Part shown: positions 18,499 through 63,952 of the stretch, piece after piece
Numbering within the stretch: position 1 is the stretch's first letter
How the letters are laid out: every line of letters begins with the position of its first letter
From: Candidatus Anstonellales archaeon
Lineage (GTDB): Archaea; Micrarchaeota; Micrarchaeia; Anstonellales; J096
NCBI GenBank assembly: GCA_038896535.1
Contig: JAWACY010000001.1
Location: forward strand, 262,488-326,487
Reading direction: 5' to 3'
Length of the DNA: 64,000 bases
Position numbers and translations under genes: made by a program
Notes under the pieces: generated by a model
Database searches by the model: none
Told to the model about the DNA's origin: nothing
What the model saw: only the letters and a program-made list of their open reading frames with translations

Positions 18499-19062
18499 TC
18501 AAAATTTTTCCAAGCTCTGTTCAAGCTGTTCTAAATCATTATGCATCTCCTTTAATGCCTTTATTAGAACATTCCTTGCACTCATCTGGCCTATTGATTC
18601 TATAAAAAATTGAAATCCATCACTGCTTTCTTTATATGCTGTTATTGATGCTTGGAATTTCATATGCTCTCTTCCTATGCCCCTCTTCAAAAATCCTTCA
18701 AGCCTTAAGCTCTGCCCTTCAGCAAGTGTTATTATCGGTATGCCTTTTATTGCAACGCCTGTTTTTTCATTATTGCATTGTAAATCTTCACTATAAACAA
18801 TCTTTGGCCCTATTGCATCTAAATAGAAACCAACGCCCTCTGCTTTTATATCAGCATCCTTTATTGGGATAAGCCCTATCCTATGAGCTATGTATTCGTC
18901 AAAAAGAGCAGTCCTGTTTTCATAAAATGTTACTTTATCAATTGCTAAAACCGGAACTCTTGACATTGCATATCTTCTTAAAGCATTTGCAAATCTAACA
19001 CTTGATTTAAGCAAGAACTCAATAGTATTTTCATTTTCATTTAATATTTTTATGTCAACCAT
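18499..19062 (-). CDS. rpoD: DNA-directed RNA polymerase subunit D (Rpo3)
   Basis: FANALRRYAMSRVPVLAIDKV...DEYIAHRIGLIPI is the Rpo3/RpoD dimerisation-domain signature. Conserved position after S11. Confidence 0.8.
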   Translation of the reverse strand: MVDIKILNENENTIEFLLKSSVRFANALRRYAMSRVPVLAIDKVTFYENRTALFDEYIAHRIGLIPIKDADIKAEGVGFYLDAIGPKIVYSEDLQCNNEKTGVAIKGIPIITLAEGQSLRLEGFLKRGIGREHMKFQASITAYKESSDGFQFFIESIGQMSARNVLIKALKEMHNDLEQLEQSLEKF

Positions 19063-19076
19063 CTTTTCACCAATTT

Positions 19077-19460
19077 TCAGACTCTCCTCCCTCTCCTGCC
19101 ACCTTTCTTTCTCATAGAGTCAGTTGGCAGAGGCGTTACATCTTCTATACGCAATATTTTTAATCCTGCCCTTGCAAGCATTCTAACAGCAGCCTGTGCT
19201 CCTTGTCCTGGCGTTCTGCTTTTATTTCCTCCTGGTGCTCTTAATTTTATTATTATTTTTTCAACCCCATGCTCTCTTAATTTTTCTGCAACCTTTGTTG
19301 CTGCTTGCATTGCAGCATAAGGTTTGCCCTCTTCCCTATCAGCATCAACAATAACCCCGCCAGAGCACCAAGCAAGAGTTTCTGCTCCACTTAAATCAGT
19401 CGCTGTTATTATAGTATTATTTTTTGATGAATATATTCTTACAACCGCTATCTTTACCAT
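19077..19460 (-). CDS. rps11: 30S ribosomal protein S11 (uS11)
   Basis: ...[29 protein letters not shown]... uS11 signature. Confidence 0.9.
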
Positions 19461-19462
19461 TT

Positions 19463-20026
19463 TTATCCCTCTTCTTCATTCTCCTCTTCTTTCTCATTCT
19501 CTACACTTTCAGCGCTTTCCTGTTCTTTTTTCACTTCTTTAAATATACTTGAAGGGTCTTTATAATAACCTATGCTATTCTCTTCATTGACACTTACTAA
19601 ATAGCCAGGGTTTTTTATTCTTTTTCCATTTATTGCTATAAATCCATGAGTTATAAGCTGTCTTGCCTGTCTTATTGTTTTTGCCATTCCTTTTCTATAA
19701 ACTAATGTTTGTAATCTCCTTTCAAGAATGCTCTTAACATTTAATGATAAAATATCATCAATGCTTGCATTTTCAGGCAAGATATTTAATCTAGCCAGTT
19801 TTTTATTTATTTTTTTTAGTGCTATTTCTTTTTCCTTTTCTTCAATTCCGAGTATTCTTCTTGCTTCTCTCCTTATTTTTCTTAATTCTGCTCTTGCTAC
19901 CCAAAGGCTTTGCATATTTTTCAATCCATATTCATTTTTCAGCTTTTTTTCTTCTATTATCCTTAATTTATCCCAAAGCTTTTTTGGCCTTTTAAATTTT
20001 TTCCTTATCCTTCTAGGATCTCCCAT
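19463..20026 (-). CDS. rps4: 30S ribosomal protein S4 (uS4)
   Basis: [21 protein letters not shown]-terminus and S4 domain. Acidic C-terminal tail. Confidence 0.9.
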
Positions 20027-20051
20027 AGTCTCACTCTATCTTATTTGTTTT

Positions 20052-20636
20052 CTATTTGCCTTGTTTTCCTTCTGCCTTTGCAGGCTGTTCCTTCTTCTTT
20101 ATAACTCCAACAGTCATGCCAGTTCTGCCCGTATTCTTTGTCCTTTGTCCTCTAACCTTTTGTCCTTTCAGATGCCTATAGCCTTGCCATGTCCTTGATT
20201 TTTTCTTTGCCTCTATGTCTTGACGCTTTGCAAAATCAAGGTCATTCATAATTACATGAATGTTATTTCCAGTTGCCATATCTTTTCTCCTATTAAGCAA
20301 AAATGCAGGCAATAATCTATCATCGATTGAATATAATATTTTATTTATTTTTTCAACTTGCTCTTCATTTAATTTATTTAATTCAATATCCTTTGGTACA
20401 TTGAGCGCATTGCTTATTATGTTTGCAACCGGCCACCTGAGGCCATGGCTTATGCCTTTTATATTAAGCAAAGCCCTGTGTAGCTTTAGCCCGCCATCTA
20501 AATCATTGCCAGCTATTCTTACTATGCCCTTTAATCTTTTTTCTAATTTTTGCTCTTGTTTCTCTTCATTTTTGCCTTTCTTCTCATGTTTGCTTTGCTT
20601 TTTTTCCTGCTTACTTTCTTTTTCTTCCTTTGCCAT
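20052..20636 (-). CDS. rps13: 30S ribosomal protein S13 (uS13) with Lys/Glu-rich N-terminal extension
   Basis: GIVRIAGNDLDGGLKLHRALLNIKGI...uS13 core. About 40 aa of K/E-rich N-terminal extension. Confidence 0.85.
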   Translation of the reverse strand: MAKEEKESKQEKKQSKHEKKGKNEEKQEQKLEKRLKGIVRIAGNDLDGGLKLHRALLNIKGISHGLRWPVANIISNALNVPKDIELNKLNEEQVEKINKILYSIDDRLLPAFLLNRRKDMATGNNIHVIMNDLDFAKRQDIEAKKKSRTWQGYRHLKGQKVRGQRTKNTGRTGMTVGVIKKKEQPAKAEGKQGK

Positions 20637-20658: not shown

Positions 20659-20756
20659 CGCCAGGGGTGGGAATCTCGGCATATAGCTTTCGAACCCACG
20701 AGCCCTTTCAGGCACACGCTCTCCAGGCGTGCGCATTACCACTCTGCCACCCTGGC
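20659..20756 (-). tRNA. tRNA-Ser(GGA) with a putative 16-nt intron in the T-loop
   Basis: Acceptor GCCAGGG/CCCTGGC. Anticodon stem CACGC/GCGTG with loop CTGGAGA. Long variable arm. T-stem GTGGG/CCCAC enclosing TTCGAA[AGCTATATGCCGAGAT]T. Confidence 0.6.
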
Positions 20757-33329: not shown

Positions 33330-33515
33330 GTGATTAGACAAAAATATCCCGTGAATAAATTTACCTTAAAAGTAAAGATTGGGTGCGATTATTACCCAGA
33401 CTTTTATAAGAGATGCACTAATATAGCCAAAATAATAAAGGTCAGTGAAAACAGCGAGGGCAAACAGTTAATCCAGAGTGAATTAAAGAAGAAGTTTGAT
33501 ATAAAGGGGTGGTAA
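33330..33515 (+). CDS. small ORF upstream of the MTase (GTG start), possible controller or leader; doubtful
   Basis: 61 aa with a non-ATG start. Ends 2 nt before the MTase ATG. No recognisable HTH. Confidence 0.2.
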   Translation: MIRQKYPVNKFTLKVKIGCDYYPDFYKRCTNIAKIIKVSENSEGKQLIQSELKKKFDIKGW

Positions 33516-33517
33516 AA

Positions 33518-34876
33518 ATGCAAAGTGGTGAAAAATTAAACCGCAGAATCTTTGGAATGCATTTTACCCCAATAGAAATATTTAATGAGTATATATTACC
33601 ACAAATTAAAAGTGTTCTTTATAAGTATACATGGATTGATTTATTTTGTGGAGAAGGTAATTTAATTTTACCTATTTTAAATTTAATTCCTTATCAAGAT
33701 AGACGATTATTTTTTAAGGAGCACATTTTATGCTATGATATAAGCAGTGATGCAGTAAATAAAGCAATTAATACTGCTATTAATTATGGAATACCAGAAG
33801 ATTTAGCAAAGGAAAATATAAAAGTCAGAGACACATTAAAAGACTACCCTGAAATCAATAGCAAATACCCTGTATTTCATATTACAAATCCACCTTATCT
33901 TTATTTAGGTTATATAAGAAAACATAAAGAAGCTTCTAATAAATTAATATATTTTACAGGAATAAATAGAGGTTATCAGGATTTATATCAAATAGCATTA
34001 ATTAATGATTTAAGGCATGGAATAAATAATATGATTTATATAATACCCTCTAACTTTTTATTTTCTGATTCGGGGGCTAATAAGATTAGAAAGGATTTTT
34101 TAAGGCATTATAAAATTAACAGTTGTTATATTTTTGAGAAAAAAATATTTAACTATACTGGAACTAATGTTTTAATAGTAAATTTTGAAAGAACTAATTT
34201 AGTCAATAGTAAGATAGAGTTTAACGCATATAAAATAAACAGCCATATAGAAAAAAAGAAATATGTATTATATGAAATAAATAATTTTAAACCGAACAAT
34301 GAATATTATGATTATATAAAAAATAATTTTAAAAAAGACCATTTGAATGTTAAATTTTATCTTAATTATACGGAATTGGAAGAAAATAAAGGCAGTAATA
34401 AAGTCATACTTTTAAATTCAAAGAATTATAAACATGGGGTATATACAAAAGAAACCTTTTATGTTAATGATGCATTATATAAAAAAATAACCTCAAATCC
34501 TCTATTTGTTAGAACTGTGGATACAGGATCTTTAAATGGTAAGGCTGGATTATATTTAATATATGATGAATTTGGAGCAGATGGTATTTTTGTAAAAGGT
34601 CAAACTTATAGAACAAATCCCATACAGATATTCATAGAACCTGAAATTACAAAAAATGAGAGTTATAAATTAATGAAATTATTTAATAATATTTTAAATA
34701 ATTTAAGAGATAAGACAGGCAGTGATTTTATGACTACATATAGATATGCAGACAACCCAAAGTATATAAGAAAATATTTAGGTCTAAAACAGGTCAAAGA
34801 GATATTAACAACTATAAGTATTAAAGATTTGAGAAATACTCAGGAAGCAATAGAGCCGTCAAAACATTTTTATTAA
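33518..34876 (+). CDS. gamma-class N6-adenine DNA methyltransferase (M.TaqI-like), the M subunit of a type II R-M
   Basis: Motif X HFTP, motif I DLFCGEG and motif IV NPPY, in gamma-class order. SD GGGGTGG 6 nt upstream of the ATG. Confidence 0.8.
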   Translation: MQSGEKLNRRIFGMHFTPIEIFNEYILPQIKSVLYKYTWIDLFCGEGNLILPILNLIPYQDRRLFFKEHILCYDISSDAVNKAINTAINYGIPEDLAKENIKVRDTLKDYPEINSKYPVFHITNPPYLYLGYIRKHKEASNKLIYFTGINRGYQDLYQIALINDLRHGINNMIYIIPSNFLFSDSGANKIRKDFLRHYKINSCYIFEKKIFNYTGTNVLIVNFERTNLVNSKIEFNAYKINSHIEKKKYVLYEINNFKPNNEYYDYIKNNFKKDHLNVKFYLNYTELEENKGSNKVILLNSKNYKHGVYTKETFYVNDALYKKITSNPLFVRTVDTGSLNGKAGLYLIYDEFGADGIFVKGQTYRTNPIQIFIEPEITKNESYKLMKLFNNILNNLRDKTGSDFMTTYRYADNPKYIRKYLGLKQVKEILTTISIKDLRNTQEAIEPSKHFY

Positions 34877-35513
34877 CCGCCTCATTTTTTATTTTTTCTA
34901 AATATGCATTATTTACCCAAGGTATTCCATCAATTATTGCAATTGTGCCTATTTCTGAACTGTCTTTTTTGGCAATATCTAATGCGACATTTAACTGATT
35001 TGTTTGTGTGCCACCGCTATCAGTTATAAATTTTGCCTCACCAAAATAGGTTTTTCCATTTTTCTTAAATACTAAATCTAACCCTTTTTCTATATTGATT
35101 TTAAATTTTTCACTGATATAATTCTTTAAAATTCTATCACTTCCATTTAAAAATTTTAAATCATTACCATTATAATTTTTAAAATCATTAATATCAATAA
35201 AACTATTTTTATATCTTTTTTGTAACCATAACTTAAAGGAATTACTATATTGCCTACTTCCAGATTTTGGTGACCTAATTAATGTTTCTAAATCCTCAAA
35301 ATTCATTCCTAACAATATATCCCCTATAATTTTTACAACATCTAAATTATTTTTGAAAATATTATCGTATCTTAATATTGAAATATAGGGATTATCTATT
35401 GGAAATTTTTCTAAATTTAGGCATGCTTTTACTAATCCAATTGGATCTTTAGCATTGAAATAACTTTTAACATTTTCAATTTGTTCTTGATTAATGTCCC
35501 TAAAACTATTCAT
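34821..35513 (-). CDS. putative type II restriction endonuclease (PD-(D/E)xK fold)
   Basis: 230 aa, convergent with the MTase and overlapping its 3' end. Candidate catalytic motif GLDLVF...GEAKF (D-x_n-E-x-K). Confidence 0.5.
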   Translation of the reverse strand: MNSFRDINQEQIENVKSYFNAKDPIGLVKACLNLEKFPIDNPYISILRYDNIFKNNLDVVKIIGDILLGMNFEDLETLIRSPKSGSRQYSNSFKLWLQKRYKNSFIDINDFKNYNGNDLKFLNGSDRILKNYISEKFKINIEKGLDLVFKKNGKTYFGEAKFITDSGGTQTNQLNVALDIAKKDSSEIGTIAIIDGIPWVNNAYLEKIKNEAVNKNVLTALLLPEYFSNL

Positions 35514-44921: not shown

Positions 44922-44994
44922 TGGGAGAGCCCGGATTTGAACCGGGATCACAAGCTCCCAAAGCTCGCAGGCTACCAGATTACCCCACTCTCCC
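44922..44994 (-). tRNA. tRNA-Pro(TGG)
   Basis: Acceptor GGGAGAG/CTCTCCC. Anticodon stem CGAGC/GCTTG with loop TTTGGGA. T-arm CCCGGTTCAAATCCGGG. Confidence 0.8.
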
Positions 44995-46613: not shown

Positions 46614-48410
46614 CTATTCAGTTATTCTAGCATATAATCTTATTCTATCTATTCCTATAGCCCCATTTTGATTTGATGTGCTGAATTCAACATAATCAAC
46701 TTGTGATTGGAAAGGCAAGCCATTTGCAATGCCAGGAGTTAATAATACTTCTTCTCCAAGAACAGCGAAAACTCCTGATTTGCCTTCTGGATCTTGTCTT
46801 GTCCTTGCATCTAGTAATGCTATTCTTATTTGCTTGCCAAAAACATCAATATCTGCTGGCATAGAATCAACGCTAAACCAGACAGCAGGGCTTATCATTC
46901 CATTTCTTTCAAATGTGGCTTTAACCCATGTGTCGTTATTGTAATGTAAAACATCTTCAACCCTAACTACGATGTCTTCATATACAAATGGCTGTGATTC
47001 TGTTGCAATTGATACTGCCTTTAATTCATAAAACCTTGCTGATAAAGATGCTTGTGATGTTGTATCAACACTGTATAACATATAATCTTTTCCAAATAGC
47101 CTATAAGTAAATGCTGCTGATTTTAGCAATATATTTACTTGCTCATCTCTTTTATTTATTGCCGATATTGTATTTGTCAATGGTTGATTAAATTGTATAT
47201 CGACATAAGCAACATCAGATACAGGGCTTACTTTGACAAAGCTCAAGCTTGGAGAAAATGCATTATAATAGTAAGTATTGCCAATATACTTAGGGAACCA
47301 AGTAAATGAATTATTGTATTGCTCAATCATCATTCCAGCACTGTTTTGTAGTGTCAATGAATCTCTATTGAATATAACTCCATCATTTACACTAAGAACA
47401 GTTGCGCAATAAATGAACTCATTATAAAGTCTGGTAAAGCACTCTCTGCTGCCCTCTTCTAATCTTGAGTATGTCCTCTGCAATGTTTCTGATAAAAGTT
47501 CTAATGTTGCTGCTGAATAATATGTTGTCGATACTTCTGAAACCCTTAATGCATATGGGCTTTGTCCTATTATGTCACTAACAACATACCACCTGCCTTG
47601 ATAAACAGATTGCTGTGATAAAGGATCATAAACCTTTGTTGTTTGAGTTATTGCTGATGCTGGATCTGCAAAAGAAAGCTCTATTGCTAATGGGTTGTAT
47701 GGAGCAACAAATACTGCAAAGTATTGCCTAGTATTGCATCCATACAATGAAAAGAAATCATTTAATGGCGTTGTTTGAGAAATATCAGAGTATTTAAGTA
47801 TTGGCATGCCCCTTGGGTTTATGTCTTCAAATGTTAAATCGCATCCATCAACGTTTATGCTTGAATCCAAATTTACTGTCGTTGTATTTACTAATGAATA
47901 GCCACCAGATGAGCTTCCAGATGAACTTCCTCCTGAAGAGCTTCCTGAAGAACTGCCAGAAGAACTGCCAGAAGAGCTGCCAGAAGAGCTGCCAGATGAA
48001 GAGCTGCTAGATGAGCCACCAGATGAGCTTCCAGATGAACTTCCTGAGGAACTGCTTGAAGAACTCCCCCCTGAAGAGCTGCTAGATGCGCCTCCAGATG
48101 AGCTTGAGCTTCCGGAACCAGAAGAAGATTGGCCTGGTTGTCCATTATCAACTAATAATAATTTTTCTGCATTATTTTGTGGTTGTAATTCTTTTCTTCC
48201 ACAAGAGCTTGTAAGCGTTAGAAAACCAAGAAAAGCCCCTAAAGCTAAACCCTTAGCCCATTTTTTTATTCCATTATTTTTGCCATTTCCTTTATCATGT
48301 TTAAAAGAAGCGCTAAAGCCCCTATTTTCACTATTGCCCCTATCTTCACTATTTTCTATATTGTCACTAAATAATAAATTTGATTTATTTGTTTTATTTT
48401 TAAAAACCAT
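46614..48410 (-). CDS. large cell-surface protein with Ser/Gly-rich linker
   Basis: 598 aa. N-terminal TM anchor, about 100 aa of (S/G)n low-complexity linker, and a large beta-rich C-terminal domain. Confidence 0.5.
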   Translation of the reverse strand: MVFKNKTNKSNLLFSDNIENSEDRGNSENRGFSASFKHDKGNGKNNGIKKWAKGLALGAFLGFLTLTSSCGRKELQPQNNAEKLLLVDNGQPGQSSSGSGSSSSSGGASSSSSGGSSSSSSSGSSSGSSSGGSSSSSSSGSSSGSSSGSSSGSSSGSSSGGSSSGSSSGGYSLVNTTTVNLDSSINVDGCDLTFEDINPRGMPILKYSDISQTTPLNDFFSLYGCNTRQYFAVFVAPYNPLAIELSFADPASAITQTTKVYDPLSQQSVYQGRWYVVSDIIGQSPYALRVSEVSTTYYSAATLELLSETLQRTYSRLEEGSRECFTRLYNEFIYCATVLSVNDGVIFNRDSLTLQNSAGMMIEQYNNSFTWFPKYIGNTYYYNAFSPSLSFVKVSPVSDVAYVDIQFNQPLTNTISAINKRDEQVNILLKSAAFTYRLFGKDYMLYSVDTTSQASLSARFYELKAVSIATESQPFVYEDIVVRVEDVLHYNNDTWVKATFERNGMISPAVWFSVDSMPADIDVFGKQIRIALLDARTRQDPEGKSGVFAVLGEEVLLTPGIANGLPFQSQVDYVEFSTSNQNGAIGIDRIRLYARITE

Positions 48411-53826: not shown

Positions 53827-54942
53827 TTATTTCATACCAGATATTAAGACTTCCCTTACATTGTGAATGTGCCAATTTATTCTAGTTTTTCTTATCTTCC
53901 CTATCGTTATTTTTATATTTTTAAACCCTAAATCAGCCATAATATTAGCTATATCATTATCTATTTCAATACTCATGTTATGAATAAGTGCATTGCTAAC
54001 ATTATAGTAAATTTTACCACCTTTTTTTAATACCCTGTAAGCTTCATTAAAGAATTCTTTTGTTGCTTTAAGATAGGCATTAACAATCATTTCCTTATGC
54101 TCACCATAACTTCCTTTACCAGATAAAAACGATGGAAAAAGGGCCTTTCTAAGCTTTTTTGATGCATACTTATCTAATGTTAAAACAGCAAGTTCAATGC
54201 TATAAATTTTTGAATAATCGACGTTGTTTATATATGGCGGGGAAGTTATTATAGTAGAAAACATGTCATTATTGAATGGCATATCTCTTGCATCGCCCAG
54301 ATATGGCTTTGCTTTATAACATATTTTTCCAAGCTTTTCCTTTTCAGCTGTTATTTTCAAATCTTTTATCATTTTCTTTGCTTGCATTCTGTAAGCTTTA
54401 TAAAAATCTGCAACATTTTTTCTTTTATCAATCTTTAATACCCCTCCATCTTTTCTTATGTATGTTATAATAGGCAGTATTGATATCAAGCATAACAGAG
54501 CAAGTGCTTTTGCCTTTTCTAAATATTCTATTGCTTTTCTTGCTCTAAAAAAAGGCCTTATATTTCTTAAAGGCATTATGTCATAGAAACTAAAAAGCTC
54601 TGAATCAACATATAGCTCATCTTTAAAATTTTTTAATTCATTTATAAAATGCTCAAATTCATCTATTTCTTCAATTTCATGTTTTGATGTTTTTGTTTTT
54701 GTAATGAAATATGACAGCTCACTTATGTCAAGGCCATAACTATCTATGCAGCGTTCATTACAAGCGAGTAATGTTGTGCCAGAGCCCATAAATGGGTCTA
54801 ACACTGGCTCTTTTATTTCTATAAAATCAAAAAGCCTTGGGGAAAAGCCCTCTTTATAATAAAACCACCTATGAACAGGCATGTTTTTTGCTTCTTCAAA
54901 AGAAAAGTATTTGCCAATTTCAAAATTATTTTCTATAAGCAT
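53827..54942 (-). CDS. N4/N6 DNA methyltransferase (PF01555-like, alpha-class motif order)
   Basis: Motif I DPFMGSGTT near the N-terminus and motif IV TSPPY about 170 aa later. Confidence 0.7.
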   Translation of the reverse strand: MLIENNFEIGKYFSFEEAKNMPVHRWFYYKEGFSPRLFDFIEIKEPVLDPFMGSGTTLLACNERCIDSYGLDISELSYFITKTKTSKHEIEEIDEFEHFINELKNFKDELYVDSELFSFYDIMPLRNIRPFFRARKAIEYLEKAKALALLCLISILPIITYIRKDGGVLKIDKRKNVADFYKAYRMQAKKMIKDLKITAEKEKLGKICYKAKPYLGDARDMPFNNDMFSTIITSPPYINNVDYSKIYSIELAVLTLDKYASKKLRKALFPSFLSGKGSYGEHKEMIVNAYLKATKEFFNEAYRVLKKGGKIYYNVSNALIHNMSIEIDNDIANIMADLGFKNIKITIGKIRKTRINWHIHNVREVLISGMK

Positions 54943-61752: not shown

Positions 61753-62376
61753 TTATTCTCCTTCTAATTCAAGCCTCTCAAAATATGATATTGGCACTTT
61801 AAATTCGTCATATGATTTAATTTTTCCTTCTTTTAAAAGCATCTCCCTTACAAAAAGCCAGAAAAATACTGCAAGGCTTTTTCTGCCTTTATTGTTCATT
61901 GGTATTACATAATTTATTCCATTAGCACTATTATCAGTATCAACAAGCCCTATAATAGGAATTTTCATATAACTCGCCTCTTTTATTGCTTCTCTTTCGC
62001 TTCTAGGATCGCATACTATCACAATGCTTGGCTCTCTAAATTGTTTTGCCTCAGGATTTGTGAAAGTACCAGGAATGAACCTTTTTGATACAATATCAAT
62101 CTTTGGCAAAAACTTCTGCGCTTTTTTAGCAGCATTTGTTGCATAAACCCTTGTTGCTATTATGCATATTTCTTCTTGTTTATAATTTTTTAATTCATTT
62201 ATTGCATCTCTTATCCCATTATCTATTGCTTTCATATCTATTATGTATATTCCATCTTTCCTTTTTTTGTATATGAATTTTATTGTATCTGCATTTCTTA
62301 ACTTTGTCCCTATATGAATGCCTGATTCAAGGTATTTCTCAACAGGCAATAAAAGCCCAGAAGTTTCTTCTTCCAT
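61753..62376 (-). CDS. rps2: 30S ribosomal protein S2 (uS2)
   Basis: 207 aa. uS2 core (…GIHIGTK…, …DPRSEREAIKEASYMKIPIIGLVDTD…). Confidence 0.9.
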   Translation of the reverse strand: MEEETSGLLLPVEKYLESGIHIGTKLRNADTIKFIYKKRKDGIYIIDMKAIDNGIRDAINELKNYKQEEICIIATRVYATNAAKKAQKFLPKIDIVSKRFIPGTFTNPEAKQFREPSIVIVCDPRSEREAIKEASYMKIPIIGLVDTDNSANGINYVIPMNNKGRKSLAVFFWLFVREMLLKEGKIKSYDEFKVPISYFERLELEGE

Positions 62377-62401
62377 TTTATCCCTCTTATTTTATCTTTA
62401 A

Positions 62402-62491
62402 TGGGGCCGCCGAGATTTTCAGGCTTATACCTTTTGAACTCGGATCACAGGCACCCCAAGCCTGCAGGCTTCCAGGTTACCCCACGGCCCC
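62402..62491 (-). tRNA. tRNA-Pro(GGG) with a putative 17-nt intron in the T-loop
   Basis: Acceptor GGGGCCG/CGGCCCC. Anticodon stem CAGGC/GCCTG with loop TTGGGGT. T-stem CCGAG/CTCGG enclosing TTCAAA[AGGTATAAGCCTGAAAA]T. Confidence 0.6.
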
Positions 62492-62507
62492 TTTCTCTTC
62501 TTTCTTA

Positions 62508-62705
62508 TCATTCTCTTATGTAAGGTATTATATCATCCATTAGCTCTACATGGCCTAAGAACATTCTTCTGCAACAATATCTCTTTATGCCAAGATCATC
62601 AAAAACTTGTTCTGGTTTTTCTCCAGCATTTACTTTTTCTTTATAATGCTTCCACAGATGTGCTAAAACCTTTCCACAAGAAAAACATCTTACAGGAAAT
62701 TCCAT
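62508..62705 (-). CDS. rpoN: DNA-directed RNA polymerase subunit N (Rpo10)
   Basis: 65 aa. [10 protein letters not shown]...RYCCRRM zinc-binding motif of Rpo10. Confidence 0.85.
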
Positions 62706-62722
62706 GAAACCACCTATATAAA

Positions 62723-63190
62723 TTACCTATAGCTTTTCTGGAACCTTGCCCTTGCTTTTCTGCCTTTGTATTTCTTTGGCTCAACCCTTCTCGTATCTTC
62801 AACAACAAGCGATTTATCAATGTTATAATATGTTTTAAGTAATTCATTATCATTAAGATATTCGGATATGCCAACTGCTATTGCTCTTCTTGCTGCTTGT
62901 ATTTGCCCCATTAAGCCGCCGCCCTTTGCATTAACTACAATATCTAAATTTTCTTCATTAGCTTTTGGAGCTAATATTAATGGCTCTAATAACATATGTT
63001 TCAAATACTCATTTTCAATTGCATCTGCAGAAATGCCATTAAAAATAAGCCTTGTTTTCTTGCCCTTTTTTATTCTGGCTATTGCTATAGCCCTTTTTCT
63101 CTTTCCCCTAGCTACAACAACCCTTACTTGGCCCTTTTTTTCTTTATCCTTTATATTTTTTGCCCTGACATTTTTTGTACTCCTAACCAT
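62723..63190 (-). CDS. rps9: 30S ribosomal protein S9 (uS9)
   Basis: 155 aa. uS9 fold, C-terminal …[13 protein letters not shown]. Confidence 0.9.
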
Positions 63191-63191
63191 T

Positions 63192-63602
63192 TTATCCCTT
63201 CCATCCTAAATATGAGCATAAATCTGCCATTGTTATGTAATTTTTTAATTCTTTCATTGCCTCATCTACCTTTGTGCCTTGAACATTTAAAGGATTGCCT
63301 ATATAAACCTTTAACCTCTTGAAAGCTTGCCTTCCTTTTGCTTTCTTTCTTGGCAACATTCCTCTTATAATGCGCCTTAATAAAAGGTTTGGCACTTTCG
63401 GCCATTTTGGACTTTTTTCTGGATTTTGTTTTGTTTGCAAATTCCTTCTTGTTTTATATTTTCTTATTATGTATTCCTTATTTCCAGATATTAATGCTTT
63501 TTCAGCATTTATAATTACAACCTGCTCTCCATTTAGCAATGCCTTTGCAACCTTGCTTGCAAGCCTTCCCAATACAGCATTTTCCGCATCTATTACCAGC
63601 AT
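63192..63602 (-). CDS. rpl13: 50S ribosomal protein L13 (uL13)
   Basis: MLVIDAENAVLGRLASKVAK is the uL13 N-terminal signature. Confidence 0.9.
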   Translation of the reverse strand: MLVIDAENAVLGRLASKVAKALLNGEQVVIINAEKALISGNKEYIIRKYKTRRNLQTKQNPEKSPKWPKVPNLLLRRIIRGMLPRKKAKGRQAFKRLKVYIGNPLNVQGTKVDEAMKELKNYITMADLCSYLGWKG

Positions 63603-63610
63603 GTCACCAC

Positions 63611-63952
63611 CTATACTATTATCATTACATCTTGAAAATTTTTTATCTCATTATGGGCTTGTTTTATCGATATTGCCTTTCCTCCAATGTTTTCTATCCC
63701 CTGCTTTGCTTTTTTACTATAAGAAAAAGCAGCCACAACAATCTTTTTTGTTAATGTTCCATTACCAAGCACTTTTCCTGGCACTATGACAGTTTTTCCT
63801 TCTTCTACAAATTTTTCTATCTTCTCCAAGTTAACAACGACCCTCTTTCTTCTAGGCTTTTCAATTAGCTTCAATACTGCTCTCCAAAAAGGCCTTTTAT
63901 CCTTTTTTAGAGTATTTATTGTGTCCAATAATTCAGCATTTTCAATATTCAT
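63611..63952 (-). CDS. rpl18e: 50S ribosomal protein L18e
   Basis: 113 aa. Basic N-terminus and conserved position upstream of L13 in the archaeal cluster. Confidence 0.75.
   Translation of the reverse strand: MNIENAELLDTINTLKKDKRPFWRAVLKLIEKPRRKRVVVNLEKIEKFVEEGKTVIVPGKVLGNGTLTKKIVVAAFSYSKKAKQGIENIGGKAISIKQAHNEIKNFQDVMIIV

Follow-up and report, generated by a model that had tools for sequence, protein, structure and literature searches.

We analysed a 64,000-nt stretch of DNA (the window) from a metagenome-assembled genome (MAG) of a Candidatus Anstonellales archaeon and identified, at 62402-62491 on the minus strand, what we take, with a probability of about 0.92, to be a functional intron-containing tRNA-Pro(GGG) gene of Micrarchaeota. 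A predicted intron of 17 nt divides its T-loop between tRNA positions 59 and 60, and the locus belongs to a described class, the archaeal bulge-helix-bulge (BHB) tRNA introns that occupy the non-canonical site 59/60. A previous sequence-only reading had proposed a tRNA-Pro(GGG) gene interrupted by a T-loop intron at exactly these coordinates, lacking only the strand. The T-stem CCGAG/CTCGG and the 17-nt insert were as it had given them, read on the minus strand, and the proposal is now supported by a strict splicing motif, predicted cuts that both fall at 59/60 and covariation in relatives. We know of no specific earlier description of a tRNA-Pro(GGG) with a T-loop intron in the order Anstonellales.

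The interrupted gene and its splicing motif

The 90-nt precursor was delineated from the sequence, a full-length match to a purpose-built covariance model (R1) and an ARAGORN call on the spliced form. The minus-strand DNA reads GGGGCCG TG GGGT AACCTGGAA GCCT G CAGGC TTGGGGT GCCTG TGAT CCGAG TTCAAA[AGGTATAAGCCTGAAAA]T CTCGG CGGCCCC A. The 5' exon (62433..62491), assigned by comparison with intron-less orthologs (L007, L012, L013, L014, L044 and L060), covers tRNA positions 1-59, comprising the acceptor 5' strand, D-arm, anticodon arm, variable loop, T-stem 5' strand and T-loop residues U54-A59. The 3' exon (62402..62415), placed by ARAGORN on the spliced form and by R1, supplies U60, the T-stem 3' strand CUCGG, the acceptor 3' strand CGGCCCC and A73. 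At the RNA level the acceptor strands are GGGGCCG and CGGCCCC, positions 8-9 are UG, the D-arm is GGGU-AACCUGGAA-GCCU, position 26 is G, the anticodon arm is CAGGC-UUGGGGU-GCCUG, the variable loop is UGAU, the T-stem is CCGAG/CUCGG and the discriminator is A73. The anticodon GGG (62455..62457, called by ARAGORN on the spliced sequence) reads CCU/CCC. CCA is not encoded, with TTA following A73.

The T-stem strands enclose UUCAAA[AGGUAUAAGCCUGAAAA]U, which is the usual 7-nt T-loop UUCAAAU split by 17 nt. ARAGORN missed the locus both with and without the -i option, the run with -i returning only four intron-less tRNAs from the window, and Rfam gave no tRNA match either at the gathering threshold or at E<=10 on the 301-nt region 62300-62600. 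Deletion of the 17 nt led ARAGORN to call a clean 73-nt tRNA-Pro(ggg). R1, which was built from seven intron-less tRNA-Pro(GGG) genes located upstream of rps2 in related metagenome contigs, scored higher here than anywhere else in the window (85.8 bits, E about 1e-16), aligning over model positions 1-73 with 18 nt inserted at the last position of the T-loop. Only a few positions separate the spliced sequence from intron-less orthologs at the equivalent site upstream of rps2. The tRNAs stand out as GC islands in the window, which has a GC content of 31.6 %.

The source of the sequence is a MAG, and the insert might on that account be suspected of being an assembly or chimera artefact. Two NCBI MAGs nevertheless contain the identical 90 nt, as does an independent Logan assembly, and recovery from three independent assemblies argues that the insert is genuine. 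Homologous introns also occur at the equivalent site in at least nine further assemblies from other samples, and we consider an artefact exceedingly improbable.

The cuts made by archaeal splicing endonucleases in a BHB motif follow the second nucleotide of each 3-nt bulge; in the canonical archaeal tRNA intron at 37/38, the motif is formed in the anticodon loop (Thompson and Daniels; Marck and Grosjean 2003). A strict motif of this kind, hBHBh', can be drawn in the T-arm of the precursor, with both flanking helices h and h' present, a central helix H of 4 bp and two 3-nt bulges on opposite strands. Helix h is the 5-bp T-stem (residues 49-53/61-65). Helix H is formed by U54 U55 C56 A57 (62435..62438, minus strand, as are all coordinates of the motif) and UGAA at intron nt 12-15 (62418..62421), with the pairs U54-a15, U55-a14, C56-g13 and A57-u12. 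The 5' splice-site bulge comprises A58 A59 a1 (62432..62434), to be cut after A59, and the 3' splice-site bulge comprises a16 a17 U60 (62415..62417), to be cut before U60. The intron hairpin h', GGU/GCC (62422..62431), contains g2-c11, g3-c10 and u4-g9 closed by the loop AUAA. The intron so defined, AGGUAUAAGCCUGAAAA (62416..62432), is supported by the ARAGORN call after its removal, by R1 and by the BHB geometry.

Runs of A mean that the sequence alone permits four intron placements, from 56/57 to 59/60, of which the BHB geometry fits 59/60 only. Cutting after the second bulge nucleotide restores UUCAAAU, matching the intron-less orthologs; in the relative L087, whose 3' bulge is acU, this loop is restored by the 59/60 solution alone. 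When the 17 nt were shuffled 20,000 times, 0.025 % of shuffles reached all four H pairs together with at least 3 bp of h' in register. The splicing motif that the sequence-only reading had suggested looking for was predicted.

Residues 54-60 of the 7-nt T-loop are the counterparts of residues 32-38 of the 7-nt anticodon loop, which makes the T-arm motif an analogue of that of the canonical 37/38 intron. Both combine a 5-bp stem, a helix of 4 bp in which the intron pairs with the first four nucleotides of the loop, and 3-nt bulges. They differ in that the canonical motif occupies the anticodon arm whilst the one described here occupies the T-arm, where it would block the tRNA elbow until spliced. 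Three other candidate identities were set aside. A group I or group II self-splicing intron is ruled out by the 17-nt length and by the lack of any Rfam match in the region at E<=10, a C/D-box guide RNA as the role of the intron is ruled out by size, and a relaxed BHB or bulge-helix-loop substrate that would need a broad-specificity EndA is excluded by the presence of both bulges and both flanking helices.

Conservation and turnover among relatives

Related loci were collected from metagenomes by means of Rps2, giving 80 loci at 42-65 % identity and ten closer loci at 67-90 %; introns were called by aligning the sequence upstream of rps2 with an intron-less reference tRNA and allowing long insertions. 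Three loci (L002-L004) were identical to the window and hence carried no comparative information, and a scan of genome contigs using Rps2 yielded nothing but an irrelevant Clostridia locus (L001, 24 % identity). A tRNA-Pro(GGG) gene lies directly upstream of rps2 in most of the 90 loci.

Every relative examined with an Rps2 identity of at least 65 % carries an intron at 59/60, with lengths of 17-32 nt. Ordered by Rps2 identity, these introns measure 27 nt in L085 (90 %), 24 nt in L086 (83 %), 17 nt in L087/L088 (82 %), 30 nt in L089 and 19 nt in L090 (both 71 %), 30 nt in L091/L092 (69 %), 29 nt in L093/L094 (67 %) and 32 nt in L006 (65 %). More distant relatives display several other states. 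No intron is present in L007, L009, L012-L014, L044 and L060; an intron at 53/54 is found in L008, L010 and the L019-L040 group; and the 59/60 intron appears again in L025, L059, L066, L069, L076, L084 and L061, in the last of these with a length of 132 nt. Two introns are present in L067 (37/38 and 59/60) and in L017, L043, L045, L049 and L051 (32/33 and 53/54). The intron position of the syntenic tRNA-Pro(GGG) thus turns over within the phylum, among Micrarchaeota-like lineages. Locus L032 also falls among those with introns at other positions or with two introns, and very long T-arm inserts (about 82-141 nt) were observed in the syntenic tRNA-Pro of L061 (2268-2473), L019 (81-295), L015 (282-469) and L023 (271-425).

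The sequence-only reading had called for comparison with the tRNA-Pro genes of related genomes, and this showed the 59/60 motif to be conserved with covariation. Across 14 distinct BHB-complete introns, helix H is invariant (U-A, U-A, C-G, A-U) save for one U-G pair and one compensatory G57-C pair. The 5' bulge is AAa in 13 of the 14, and the 3' bulge in the relatives is aaU, acU, ugU, uaU or agU. The h' sequences are mutually unrelated and always pair. We then scored covariation in an alignment of 30 columns and 19 distinct T-arms that was anchored solely by distance from the splice sites. Standard pairs filled 94.3 % of cells, compared with 79.8 +/- 1.5 % after shuffling (none of 500 shuffles as high), and the covariation score was 0.405 against 0.126 in the shuffles. 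Sliding the partners by 1-3 columns reduced pairing to 26-52 %. Changes on both sides were seen in all three h' pairs and in three T-stem pairs, and A57-U was replaced by G57-C in three of the 19 trimmed T-arm sequences.

Covariation of the intron hairpin would also fit a structured insert that is retained, giving a mature tRNA with an enlarged T-loop and a small extra hairpin. What is conserved, however, is the exact geometry of an endonuclease substrate, a 4-bp H with two opposite 3-nt bulges, and not just any hairpin. Helix H would moreover sequester U54-A57, which a working T-loop needs; homologs have inserts of anything between 12 and 132 nt, sister lineages make do with the uninterrupted 73-nt form, and a 59/60 intron of ARMAN-2 was cut in vitro (PMC3239211). 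Retention of the 17 nt is accordingly judged very unlikely.

An equally slight chance attaches to the idea that the gene is a decaying pseudogene inactivated by the T-loop insertion. Rejection of the locus by standard tRNA finders is in keeping with decay, but all cloverleaf helices are intact and show compensatory substitutions across relatives, the position between rpoN and rps2 is kept across lineages down to about 45 % Rps2 identity, and the insert itself preserves a splice motif. In an alignment of 48 homologs that was model-fitted and includes three non-GGG tRNAs, the cloverleaf was 96.1 % paired, with double changes at 15 pairs. CCT and CCC together account for 177 of 506 proline codons (35 %) in the larger open reading frames (ORFs) of the window, so a decoder with anticodon GGG is needed, and no second tRNA-Pro(GGG) was seen in the window.

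In the most distant loci, the anticodon loop of the syntenic tRNA-Pro is UUAGGGR, so that the anticodon is AGG and position 34 is A, an unusual state in archaea. This loop was found upstream of rps2 in L052-L057, L059, L066, L068, L069, L076 and L081, and at 243-317 in L063. It matches the tRNA-Pro(AGG) with A34 described in ARMAN-4 and -5 (PMC3239211).

Gene neighbourhood and predicted processing

Pfam searches established the minus-strand gene order rpl18e-rpl13-rps9-rpoN-[tRNA]-rps2, and both flanks named by the sequence-only reading were thereby confirmed: rpoN, encoding RNA polymerase subunit N, lies at 62508..62705 (PF01194, E 1.5e-29) and rps2 at 61753..62376 (PF00318), both on the minus strand. 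A protein identical to the Rps2 of the window is named at NCBI as 30S ribosomal protein S2 [Candidatus Anstonellales archaeon], Micrarchaeota (DPANN). The rpoN stop precedes the tRNA 5' end by 16 nt and the rps2 start follows its 3' end by 25 nt; the corresponding spacers in relatives are 3-8 nt and 15-58 nt. The anticodon, the same-strand position after rpoN and the syntenic similarity identify the gene as the orthologous tRNA-Pro(GGG) of the archaeal rpoN-(rpoK-eno)-rps2 cluster. In the window lineage, neither rpoK nor eno lies between rpoN and rps2, and the tRNA had been suggested to occupy their place. This was not upheld, as the distant relative L080 has the order rps9-rpoN-tRNA-Pro(GGG)-rpoK-eno-rps2. 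In that arrangement the tRNA stays beside rpoN in the presence of rpoK and eno, indicating that tRNA-Pro(GGG) is an old neighbour of rpoN. The order rpoN-eno-rps2 without the tRNA was found in L065.

Two further observations concern this region. A TATA-like sequence, ATATAATA, is present approximately 35-45 nt upstream of the tRNA, inside rpoN, and is uninformative in a genome of 68 % AT. The archaeal ribosomal protein cluster is split in the window, with rps13-rps4-rps11-rpoD (18499-20636) located approximately 41 kb from rpl18e-rpl13-rps9-rpoN-tRNA-rps2 (61753-63952).

We infer from the motif that the intron is excised by EndA, the archaeal splicing endonuclease, and that the exons are then joined by an RtcB-type ligase. 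Transcription would probably occur within the operon. Given spacers of 16 nt to rpoN and 25 nt to rps2, the tRNA is probably released by cleavage of the operon transcript. The T-arm of the precursor would have no normal T-loop, its T-stem being extended by H with U54-A57 paired to intron UGAA. EndA would recognize the BHB and cut after A59 and before U60, and ligation would yield the 73-nt tRNA with the T-loop UUCAAAU. The elbow between T-loop and D-loop would form only after splicing, and CCA would be added afterwards. The motif being strict, a broad-specificity EndA is not required and the motif is silent on enzyme type; any archaeal EndA type should be able to cleave it, judging from its predicted structure.

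Several points weigh against the interpretation of the locus as a spliced tRNA gene. Splicing is a prediction from sequence and comparison, and the cut rule was checked here only through internal consistency with intron-less orthologs. Pfam searches of 48 of the 69 window ORFs, which covered every ORF of 130-480 aa, detected neither an EndA nor an RtcB gene, and tblastn with the M. jannaschii EndA and epsilon2-type EndAs was negative on the window and all fetched loci. Helix h' has just 3 bp, one of them G-U. For the T-arm alone, the BHB fold was computed at -8.9 kcal/mol versus -11.2 kcal/mol for an alternative containing a 6x6 internal loop, and for the whole precursor the cloverleaf with BHB was computed at -35.9 kcal/mol versus a minimum free energy (MFE) of -42.4 kcal/mol; MFE folding alone yields neither the BHB nor the cloverleaf. 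A non-optimal computed energy is usual for bulged motifs. Since nearest-neighbour energies disfavour the bulged form, the proposed fold rests on the comparative evidence and not on energy.

A database search for EndA, seeded with ARMAN-2 EndA fragments from PDB 4fz2 (the seed having been verified against PDB 1a79 and 4fz2), returned 1406 homologs at E<=1e-5, of the three-unit epsilon2 type and about 385-390 aa in length. None of the 120 matches listed was tied to Anstonellales. The labels of the homologs were mostly Micrarchaeota or Micrarchaeia, with a few Marsarchaeota or Nitrososphaerota. The spread of these 1406 homologs indicates that the epsilon2 type reaches far beyond the two genera named in the 2018 literature.

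An intron that is spliced might in addition be kept by selection for some further role. The persistence of the 59/60 intron in the whole clade down to 65 % Rps2 identity, despite turnover of its inner sequence, would be compatible with such a role, as would the tight packing of the tRNA between two protein genes (gaps of 3-16 nt and 15-58 nt across the window and relatives). One candidate is that splicing has to come before RNase P/Z acts on the rpoN-tRNA-rps2 transcript, because the tRNA elbow could not form before splicing; another is that the tRNA 3' half is shielded from integrating elements. Sister lineages with a like gene order, however, either lack the intron (L007, L012-L014, L044 and L060) or carry one at 53/54, so that no specific intron position, or even presence, is required. 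Neutral persistence under a tolerant endonuclease explains the data equally well, and we regard selection for a further role as improbable.

A second T-loop intron, known systems and annotation

The sequence-only reading had placed the insertion at the same site as one in a tRNA-Ser gene, and this was found to be correct. The 98-nt pre-tRNA-Ser(GGA) (20659..20756, minus strand) contains a 16-nt intron at 59/60 (20673-20688), AGCUAUAUGCCGAGAU, in which H comprises U54-g, U55-a, C56-g and G57-c and the bulges are AAa and auU. ARAGORN and Rfam both missed this locus, and ARAGORN called the 82-nt spliced form. The gene is located directly upstream of rps13-rps4-rps11-rpoD, and its orthologs in L095-L100 carry a 59/60 intron of 15-30 nt. 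The other proline tRNA, tRNA-Pro(TGG) at 44922-44994, is intron-less as that reading had stated. It is identical to the spliced GGG tRNA at 56 of 73 positions (77 %), though the closer relatedness claimed for its 5' half did not hold, with 28/36 identical positions in one half and 28/37 in the other.

The Pro (62416-62432) and Ser (20673-20688) introns of the window are identical at nine of their first 11 nt (AGGTATAAGCC versus AGCTATATGCC). This match exceeds that of any orthologous Pro intron with the Ser intron and has a P of about 2e-4 under a simple constrained model applied post hoc. We entertain, as a doubtful possibility, that the two are copies of one portable intron spread by intragenomic copying or gene conversion. 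Given that the T-loop UUCRA is universal, any intron ending in YGAR-NN forms the central BHB helix at 59/60 in any tRNA, and if portability were true, the 59/60 site could serve as a generic landing pad for introns. Pro and Ser introns were unlike in each of three relatives whose loci were paired by sample or MAG (L085/L095, L090/L097 and L093/L098). General intragenomic homogenization of Pro and Ser introns therefore finds no support in these matched relatives, and the similarity may reflect an isolated copying event in the window lineage.

Elsewhere in the window, a GC-rich tandem repeat at 47930-48140, which on the plus strand reads as PEEL/PDEL acidic repeats, is contained in a long ORF of the minus strand (46614-48410). 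The region 33509-35513 carries a likely type II restriction-modification pair, namely an N6 DNA methylase domain protein (33509-34876, plus strand) and a Tsp45I-family restriction enzyme (34821-35513, minus strand), and a second DNA methylase is present at 53827-54942.

The closest described counterpart of the predicted gene is the pre-tRNA-Pro(GGG) of ARMAN-2 (Candidatus Micrarchaeum acidiphilum), which has introns at 53/54 and 59/60 in a strict hBHBh' motif (Fujishima et al. 2011, NAR 39:9695, PMC3239211, Fig. 1C). The two share the isoacceptor, the phylum Micrarchaeota, the 59/60 intron and the strict motif. They differ in that ARMAN-2 carries two adjacent introns, whereas the window gene has only the 17-nt intron at 59/60, and in that the window organism belongs to another order (Anstonellales) and is AT-rich. 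The pre-tRNA-Cys(GCA) of ARMAN-2 contains a 13-nt intron at 59/60 that was cleaved in vitro by the epsilon2 EndA (PMC3239211, Fig. 4B), which constitutes experimental proof that a 59/60 intron can be a substrate. It resembles the window intron in insertion site, short length and phylum, but its motif is a relaxed hBH with one bulge missing, for which a broad-specificity enzyme is required.

In archaeal tRNAs, introns at the non-canonical sites 53/54, 56/57 and 59/60 are well established (reviewed in PMC4090602). Those of Thermoproteales and other Crenarchaeota (Sugahara et al. 2007, 2008; Fujishima et al. 2010; PMC4090602) occupy the same sites, likewise turn over in position between relatives and likewise defeat standard tRNA finders. 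In contrast to the lineage described here, they belong to another superphylum and are served by an (alpha-beta)2 EndA, and the large-scale transposition of near-identical introns shown in those organisms was not seen in the window lineage.

These introns have consequences for annotation. ARAGORN and the Rfam tRNA model overlook two of the six tRNA genes in the window (Pro-GGG and Ser-GGA), so that genomes of this lineage would appear to lack decoders for CCU/CCC and UCU/UCC. Incomplete DPANN tRNA sets have been proposed to reflect, in all probability, undetected disrupted genes (Kaneta et al. 2018, PMC5829648). Public calls of neighbouring protein genes are affected as well. The Rps2 call of L091 (1501-2310) is 269 aa rather than about 207 aa, its N-terminus being extended over the hidden tRNA at 1503-1605, and the Rps13 call of L095 (801-1460) is 219 aa rather than about 190 aa, extended over the hidden tRNA at 781-878. 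In the window, the spurious ORFs 62283-62543(+) and 62401-62523(+) overlap tRNA-Pro(GGG). Our findings leave the current understanding of archaeal tRNA splicing unchanged. In sum, a single orthologous tRNA whose genomic position is fixed occurs within the phylum without an intron, with an intron at 59/60 or 53/54, and with two introns at 37/38 and 59/60 or at 32/33 and 53/54, and this series of intron states is useful for the study of intron gain, loss and turnover.

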